DNA of 35,056 nucleotides from a virus. Taxonomy: Duplodnaviria > Heunggongvirae > Uroviricota > Caudoviricetes. The translations under genes and the position numbers were made by a program. Shown in pieces: positions 8,275 through 8,610 of the stretch. The stretch lies in the IMG/VR virus record IMGVR_UViG_2778261316_000004, one strand, 5' to 3'. The notes under the pieces are model-generated. The model made no database searches, was not told the DNA's origin, and worked only from the letters and a program-made list of their open reading frames with translations. Numbering within the stretch: position 1 is the first letter of the stretch; each line of letters opens with the position of its first letter.

Positions 8275-8610
8275 TTACGAATGATCATTCTGTTTAGTCT
8301 TCATGAGAAAATCCCGAATCTTTGCCAAGTTTGAATTTTCGGGGATTGAATCCATGTACGGATCACGCTCAAACACTAATTGCTCAGATTCAACGAAAGC
8401 CTGCCACTCTACTGGGTCTAGCTCAAATCCCATTGCTGTCATATCACTTTCATCTTCCCCCTCGATCCAGTGGACTAAATAAAACAATTCATCATCAGGA
8501 GAATCATCCTCACCATCAACAATATCAACATCGGTTACAGTGATACGTAGGGTGGGATCGATTTTTGAGACATAAATTCCTAACTGTGGTATAGGGGGAA
8601 TATTGTTCAT
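8275..8610 (-). CDS. Highly acidic 111 aa protein (about 26 Asp/Glu vs 7 Lys/Arg) of unknown function
   Basis: ATG at 8608..8610 with AGGAG RBS; divergent from the protease operon. Confidence 0.6.
   Translation of the reverse strand: MNNIPPIPQLGIYVSKIDPTLRITVTDVDIVDGEDDSPDDELFYLVHWIEGEDESDMTAMGFELDPVEWQAFVESEQLVFERDPYMDSIPENSNLAKIRDFLMKTKQNDHS

Follow-up and report, generated by a model that had tools for sequence, protein, structure and literature searches.

The analysed window, a stretch of 35,056 nt of viral DNA, is a 186/P2-like prophage. The features considered here begin with the gene for the replication endonuclease gpA (5083-7497), followed by a 62 aa ORF (7650-7838, phrog_698), a DinI-like gene (7849-8082) and, on the minus strand, a gene for a strongly acidic protein (8275-8610). 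A spacer of 429 nt, which contains the cos site, separates the acidic gene from a gene for a trypsin-like serine protease, M35A (9040-9738; PADLOC 4.7e-91), and from that for a 148 aa membrane protein with one C-terminal hydrophobic segment, M35B (9735-10181; PADLOC 6.3e-57). The portal and terminase genes lie beyond this pair on the minus strand. PADLOC recognized the two neighbours as the candidate defence system PDC-M35, the definition of which has only the A and B genes. The acidic gene is indeed divergent from the protease operon, as pointed out in the first-pass annotation, though the spacer between them holds cos.

A perfect LexA-box-like palindrome, CTGTAAATATAAACAG, was found at 7592-7607 (one match against 0.49 expected). 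The 62 aa ORF and the DinI-like gene follow it at a distance of approximately 45 nt, and the arrangement resembles the SOS operon of the 186 type (p95/tum-like).

The cos site and the gpA-gpQ hotspot

The gpA-gpQ hotspot of P2-like phages was described by Rousset et al. 2022 (PMC9122126). In Table S5A of the same work the protein WP_001059831 of E. coli B, identical to the acidic protein of the window, is given as 'hypothetical' and is paired with retron and SieB loci. In the window, the segment 8865-9013 aligned with the conserved cos-flanking block that is common to P2-like prophages, and the 19-mer GGCGTGGCGGGGATACGAG at 8993-9011 aligned to cosR, the right end of phage P2. The earlier placement of the acidic gene in a cargo hotspot beside a cos-like site was borne out by this 19-mer and by the P2 type of the hotspot. 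The conserved block of approximately 150 bp also includes a GC hairpin, CCGCCAGAACTGGCGG, at 8923-8938.

Comparison with empty and alternative sites revealed a variable slot to the left of cos, corresponding to the old/tin region of P2. The left slot is empty in E. coli WP3-S18-ESBL-07, which sets its bounds in the window at about 8137-8864, and in E. coli SF-468 it is filled by an unrelated gene of 141 aa. The acidic gene occupies the left slot and the defence cargo the right one. The gpA-gpQ hotspot consists in reality of two slots split by cos, the left one on the old/tin side and the right one between cos and the portal gene, which vary independently of each other. A segment of approximately 60 bp at 8137-8197, right of the DinI terminator, matches the SF-468 locus with the 141 aa cassette (L003, about 3640-3700) and is missing from the empty site; it may represent a common junction or a recombination scar.

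Since cos lies within the spacer, the acidic gene and PDC-M35 are found at opposite ends of the virion genome. The acidic gene is at the right end and PDC-M35 at the left end of the mature genome, and the two become adjacent only once the genome is circular or integrated. The tin and old genes of P2 lie between orf91 and cosR and are encoded by the minus strand, their transcript starting approximately 150 nt from cosR. The acidic gene resembles them in its slot, between the DinI/orf91 side and cos, and in its leftward orientation away from cos.

The acidic gene and the DUF8087 family

The minus-strand ORF 8275-8610 starts with ATG and encodes a product of 111 aa. The good ribosome-binding site and start codon reported previously were found as described: a Shine-Dalgarno sequence AGGAG is placed at 8620-8616 on the minus strand, 5 nt 5' of the ATG, and is kept as AAAGGA(A/G) across all aligned copies of the gene. 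The strong acidity was likewise confirmed, as the protein comprises 26 acidic residues (15 D and 11 E) against 7 basic ones (4 K and 3 R), includes both acidic clusters, DGEDDSPDDE and EGEDESD, and has a pI of 4.05 and a net charge of about -19. Among the 47 non-overlapping ORFs of the window it is the most acidic by approximately two-fold, with a charge per residue of -0.171 in comparison to -0.085 for the runner-up. No catalytic motif, membrane segment or DNA-binding motif was found in it.

A word-indexed search of 5.8 billion proteins yielded 61 homologue clusters with 50-98 % identity, all from Enterobacterales. The alignment of 40 family sequences contained 10 invariant and 43 nearly invariant columns, and the median dN/dS in 81 pairwise comparisons was 0.14. 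The clusters, the invariant residues and the low dN/dS indicate that the acidic ORF is a real gene under constraint.

The protein belongs to the family DUF8087 (PF26332, phrog_17127). The match to phrog_17127 covered its full length (positions 1-111 of 111, E = 2e-70), a precomputed PF26332 match was present on every homologue, including the 98 %-identical P0001, and WP_001059831 is labelled in RefSeq as a DUF8087 domain-containing protein. The PF26332 core, P8, G11, Y13, V25, V46, D56, E63, W69 and L78, was conserved in an alignment of 77 sequences. A Pfam scan of the acidic protein, performed with a Pfam set that does not include the PF26332 model, gave no match, nor did scans with the NCBIfam and PADLOC models, those of the PDC-M35 components included. 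A profile search of PDB sequences returned nothing even at E <= 10. DUF8087 is an uncharacterised small family with existing DUF and PHROG entries; in the literature search, DUF8087, PF26332, WP_001059831, phrog_17127 and PDC-M35 were mentioned in no paper.

When 1.84 billion representative proteins were searched in full with a HMMER profile of the family, only 35 matches were obtained. The acidic protein of the window represents the typical long enterobacterial subtype, composed of a barrel and a C-terminal helix. The remote members (70-106 aa) comprise the barrel core only and are likewise strongly acidic, and one subtype bears a basic N-terminal arm, MGQAKxRG...RIAQ. The negative charge is maintained in the family, with a median of -0.153 per residue in 77 members.

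DUF8087 was present in none of 50,697 phage records and in one of 72,556 plasmid records, that one being a circular P2-like element with a retron; the family was thus encountered in integrated elements only. The DUF8087 cassette was detected in 218 of 5,426 complete E. coli genomes (approximately 4 %), 132 of which contained the P2-type cassette in full, with at least 80 % of the query covered. As to identity, 137 of the E. coli records were at 95 % or above and 82 were of an island type at approximately 89 %. The carriers include the strains B/BL21, C and W and the enteropathogenic strain E2348/69 (EPEC). The flanking P2-like sequences were found in 1,316 E. coli genomes, so that the cassette is carried by approximately 10 % of them (132/1316). 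A scan of metagenomes for DUF8087 gave three short loci only.

The structure of the acidic protein was modelled with AlphaFold2. The 40-sequence alignment gave a pLDDT of 81 and a pTM of 0.65, and 77 sequences gave 84.1 and 0.70, respectively; the five models, with pLDDT values of 81-84, had an identical topology. In the model, four strands are followed by a helix at 66-76 and a fifth strand, after which come a short helix and the C-terminal helix at 94-109; the acidic loop 31-40 is the least confident region. The model appears to be a beta-barrel of the SH3-like kind, and its loops are acidic. A Foldseek search with the model against PDB and BFVD returned nothing at E <= 0.001. The check for a DNA-mimic fold proposed together with the first description of the gene gave an apparent SH3-like barrel, different from the Ocr and ArdA folds. 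Among the closest known systems are the small SH3-like barrels DUF1653 (PDB 3be3) and FeoA, and the modelled DUF8087 fold seems to be one with no close solved relative.

Mobility and origin of the cassette

In E. coli B the sequence is 99.4 % identical to the window over 7500-9015, beyond which a retron of the St85 family replaces PDC-M35. Conversely, E. coli SF-468 carries homologues of M35A and M35B together with the unrelated 141 aa gene; the PDC-M35 of the window is only 65-72 % identical to the SF-468 copy. The acidic gene was 96-100 % identical in 27 P2-like loci of IMG/VR. The distance from the gene start to the cos motif was 391 nt, as in the window, in 24 of the 27 and 422-440 nt in the other three, and the cos-to-portal interval ranged in these loci from 194 to approximately 2,530 bp. 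Nineteen different cos-to-portal contents were found beside the acidic gene, that of the window being one of them. They comprised retrons I-C and II-A, AbiU, ShosTA, an Old-like ATPase-Toprim, PDC-S06, HEC-06, bSEFIR, ThsA/SIR2-like and NsnA-like genes, several unknowns and an empty slot.

The acidic gene was previously suggested to be a module regulator or an antidote of the neighbouring protease operon. That it is a dedicated regulator, antitoxin or third component of PDC-M35 could be imagined from the physical adjacency and divergent orientation of the genes in the window and from the possibility that an acidic protein serves as an antitoxin. The combination is not conserved, however: the acidic gene occurs with 18 other contents or none, and the PDC-M35 of SF-468 has another gene in the left slot. 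Moreover, cos lies between the acidic gene and the operon, PADLOC defines PDC-M35 by two genes, and none of the 5,426 complete E. coli genomes covered at least 80 % of the segment 7500-10250, which holds both the acidic gene and PDC-M35. No neighbour was conserved across the DUF8087 contexts either, and hence no adjacent toxin partner of the kind expected for a type II antitoxin was found. An obligatory link between DUF8087 and PDC-M35 was rejected on these grounds, and with it the suggested regulator or antidote; a dedicated partnership of any of these kinds is extremely improbable.

The unit shared between elements is a cassette of approximately 540 bp, consisting of 165-175 nt upstream of the gene, the gene itself and about 36 nt downstream. 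It is 84-89 % identical in Serratia, Lonsdalea, Morganella, Proteus, Symbiopectobacterium and an E. coli island. The upstream part, a conserved leader at 8611-8780 on the minus strand (approximately 165-175 nt), travels with the gene between unrelated elements. DUF8087 genes were also found in other settings: on a Morganella island after the Mokosh type II gene MkoC, an island that also carries KlcA; in a P2-like prophage of Providencia between ogr and a Septu system; and in Xenorhabdus beside an inovirus.

The stop codon of the acidic gene is overlapped by a putative remnant of the 5' end of a P2-type integrase gene, encoding MIIRKCKHPSGKWFCK (8288-8238, minus strand). It runs for 16 codons before a stop in the window and for 56 codons in the island copies. 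The window remnant, taken by itself, falls short of significance (E = 1.5); its identity as an integrase remnant is supported by the longer remnants and by intact DUF8087-int operons, with which it is continuous. Such operons are found in P2-like prophages of Klebsiella and Enterobacter, in which the genes for an HTH repressor, a tail-anchored Flk_N protein, DUF8087 and integrase follow one another and DUF8087 overlaps the int start. The remnant and the intact repressor-Flk_N-DUF8087-int operons point to the lysogenic repressor-int operon of Klebsiella/Enterobacter P2-like phages as the source from which the cassette probably descends. The integrase of the window itself (55-1053, minus strand) is 50 % identical to the Klebsiella P2-like integrase, the 5' end of which matches the remnant.

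Flk_N was considered as an obligatory partner of DUF8087 and rejected, as DUF8087 was missing from the Flk_N-int slot in 10 of 12 further loci. One of the 12 contained DUF8087 and one an 81 aa short form, the rest having BRCT-domain or unrelated genes. In prophages of the Klebsiella P2-like type (L075-L084, about 3600-4540) the Flk_N-integrase slot is filled by alternative genes, among them those for two kinds of BRCT-domain protein of approximately 290 aa.

The arm-bearing DUF8087 subtype was found in five loci (L055, L056, L058, L069 and L070), all of them small elements with int, HTH_17 and Phage_GPA genes. It is always placed between HTH_17 and int and is divergent from HTH_17-GPA in four of the five. 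DUF8087 was nevertheless rejected as a core gene of these elements, since all five positive loci came from searches for DUF8087 itself, and the 80 GPA loci that were sampled independently, with up to 5 kb of flank, contained no copy of it; its position is conserved at most in one sub-lineage. Small elements of this kind (integrase, HTH_17 and a P2 gpA-like Rep) come from Nitrosospira and metagenomes, and their cargo includes Hachiman, Gabija, a TIR-NLR (TIR-AAA-TPR protein), a BglII RM system and an SRA-HNH gene.

Some copies of the gene have decayed. P0039 (152 aa; L063-L065, 6001-6459), from an AlpA/DUF927 satellite integrated in ssrA, is a frameshifted copy with its N-terminus translated from the leader, and P0043 and P0054 are truncated or fused to the int remnant. 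These copies indicate that the gene is dispensable in some lineages and is being lost there. Taken as a whole, it is highly probable that the window carries an intact and selected autonomous DUF8087 cassette in the old/tin slot, unrelated to PDC-M35 and derived from a lysogeny operon.

Expression and possible mode of action

A scan of 8050-9100 for a consensus sigma-70 promoter gave no site; the leader contains a candidate -10 motif, CATAAT, at 8752-8747. Nothing reached the Rfam gathering score in 7400-10300, where two weak matches, at 10085-10241, lie away from the gene, and the RNA fold of the leader was no better than that of shuffled sequence (z = +0.57). The genetic context nevertheless suggests that the gene is expressed in the resident, integrated state, because DUF8087 is part of the repressor-Flk_N-DUF8087-integrase operon and the window copy keeps the int remnant, and because its slot and orientation are those of the old-tin lysogenic-conversion genes in P2. 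The protein would then probably be made by the resident integrated element and not at entry alone. The distribution limited to integrated elements, the defence hotspots and the lysogenic operon together favour a resident role over anti-restriction in the entry phase.

Acidity alone is no proof of mimicry. Among the classes of mechanism, a small acidic protein acting through binding or mimicry is the most plausible one. In the model that we propose, the cassette is a single-gene autonomous accessory unit (moron) occupying the old/tin slot, at the right end of the 186/P2-like prophage. The product of the gene, predicted to be soluble and strongly acidic, with an SH3-like beta-barrel and two acidic loops, would act stoichiometrically as a decoy or mimic by blocking a basic, probably nucleic-acid-binding, surface of another protein. 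Such a stoichiometric decoy or inhibitor made by the resident element is put forward tentatively, as a possibility that falls short of being likely. With regard to the target, a protein of a competing phage or element, as in exclusion of the Tin type, and a host or defence nuclease, as in anti-defence, each have a low probability; a switch protein of the excisionase/AlpA/Cox type, belonging to the element itself or to a rival, is given a still lower one, and the remainder falls to something else.

The first-pass annotation suggested, as one possibility, an anti-restriction protein similar to Ocr or ArdA. A DNA mimic of this kind (Ocr/ArdA/Arn-like) would shield the phage genome from host nucleases or other defences at entry or induction. 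The acidic protein does resemble Ocr, ArdA, KlcA (ArdB) and Arn in being small, in its very low pI and in being carried by mobile elements, and the extreme acidity, the several kinds of mobile element that carry DUF8087, the location of the gene near a genome end and the Antirestrict gene of the KlcA/ArdB type shared by the Morganella and Proteus islands fit this reading. On the other hand, Ocr, ArdA and KlcA are elongated DNA-shaped dimers or helical bundles whereas the DUF8087 model appears to be an SH3-like barrel, and no similarity in sequence or fold was seen to these three or to any DNA mimic of solved structure: no homology to ArdA, Ocr or KlcA-ArdB was found among Pfam, NCBIfam, annotated PHROG or PDB sequences (E <= 10). 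Known anti-restriction genes are common in sequenced phages and plasmids, and the absence of the family from these, one plasmid record excepted, speaks against a general role in anti-restriction, as do the ancestral place of the gene in a lysogenic repressor-int transcript and its presence in only approximately 10 % of E. coli P2-like loci. The proposal gained no positive support from the family and PDB-sequence searches, the fold or the distribution, and a DNA mimic acting in this way is considered unlikely.

The slot and orientation of the P2 old-tin operon, the dominance of anti-phage systems in the hotspot, the place in a lysogeny operon and the constant association with integrated elements would agree with superinfection exclusion of the Tin type, in which a phage or satellite entering the cell would have one of its DNA-binding or replication proteins poisoned by the resident protein. 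The acidic protein, however, matches no Old- or Tin-type family in PADLOC or PHROG, has no effector domain, and matches no PADLOC model of any other kind. E. coli B and C have classically served as permissive hosts of the T phages and of P2, P4 and phiX174, so the intact cassette in B/BL21 and C argues against a broad exclusion of these phages. Exclusion of the Tin type is accordingly also regarded as having a rather small chance of being correct.

A modulator of the lysis-lysogeny or excision switch was considered as well, that is, a decoy that sequesters a winged-helix protein of the excisionase/AlpA/Cox/Apl type and stabilises integration. There is a precedent in CarS of Myxococcus xanthus, an acidic SH3-like antirepressor that mimics operator DNA and sequesters the DNA-recognition helix (PMC2926617) of a MerR-type winged-helix protein. 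CarS has a five-stranded SH3-like topology, and the DUF8087 model is also a small five-stranded barrel with acidic loops; CarS is the closest functional analogy, not a homologue. The location of the arm-bearing subtype between HTH_17 and int in five small elements and the overlap with int in the P2-like lysogeny operons are in line with such a function, while the mobility of the cassette and its presence/absence polymorphism argue against an essential switch component. The switch modulator is rated quite unlikely. An even bolder proposal, that the DUF8087 proteins form a new family of decoys, acidic and SH3-like, with which P2-family phages and small int/HTH_17/GPA elements would sequester winged-helix proteins of the excisionase/AlpA/Cox type (anti-RDF or anti-activator) and so lock integration or silence rivals, or else an anti-defence DNA mimic of integrated elements with a new fold, is improbable to a slightly greater degree.

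By its location the acidic gene is an ordinary hotspot moron, and by its composition an unusual one. The cos-proximal hotspot of P2 and P4 is a main source of new anti-phage systems, and the uncharacterised acidic protein, independent of the defence cargo, is encoded by one recurrent occupant of its left slot. The presence of the gene in the laboratory strains B/BL21, C and W and in EPEC E2348/69 makes its function cheap to test. If the protein is not an inhibitor, it would be an ordinary hypothetical moron; if it proves to be a true inhibitor of a defence system, a rival phage or an excisionase-type switch, it would represent a new fold among the decoys used in conflicts between mobile elements.
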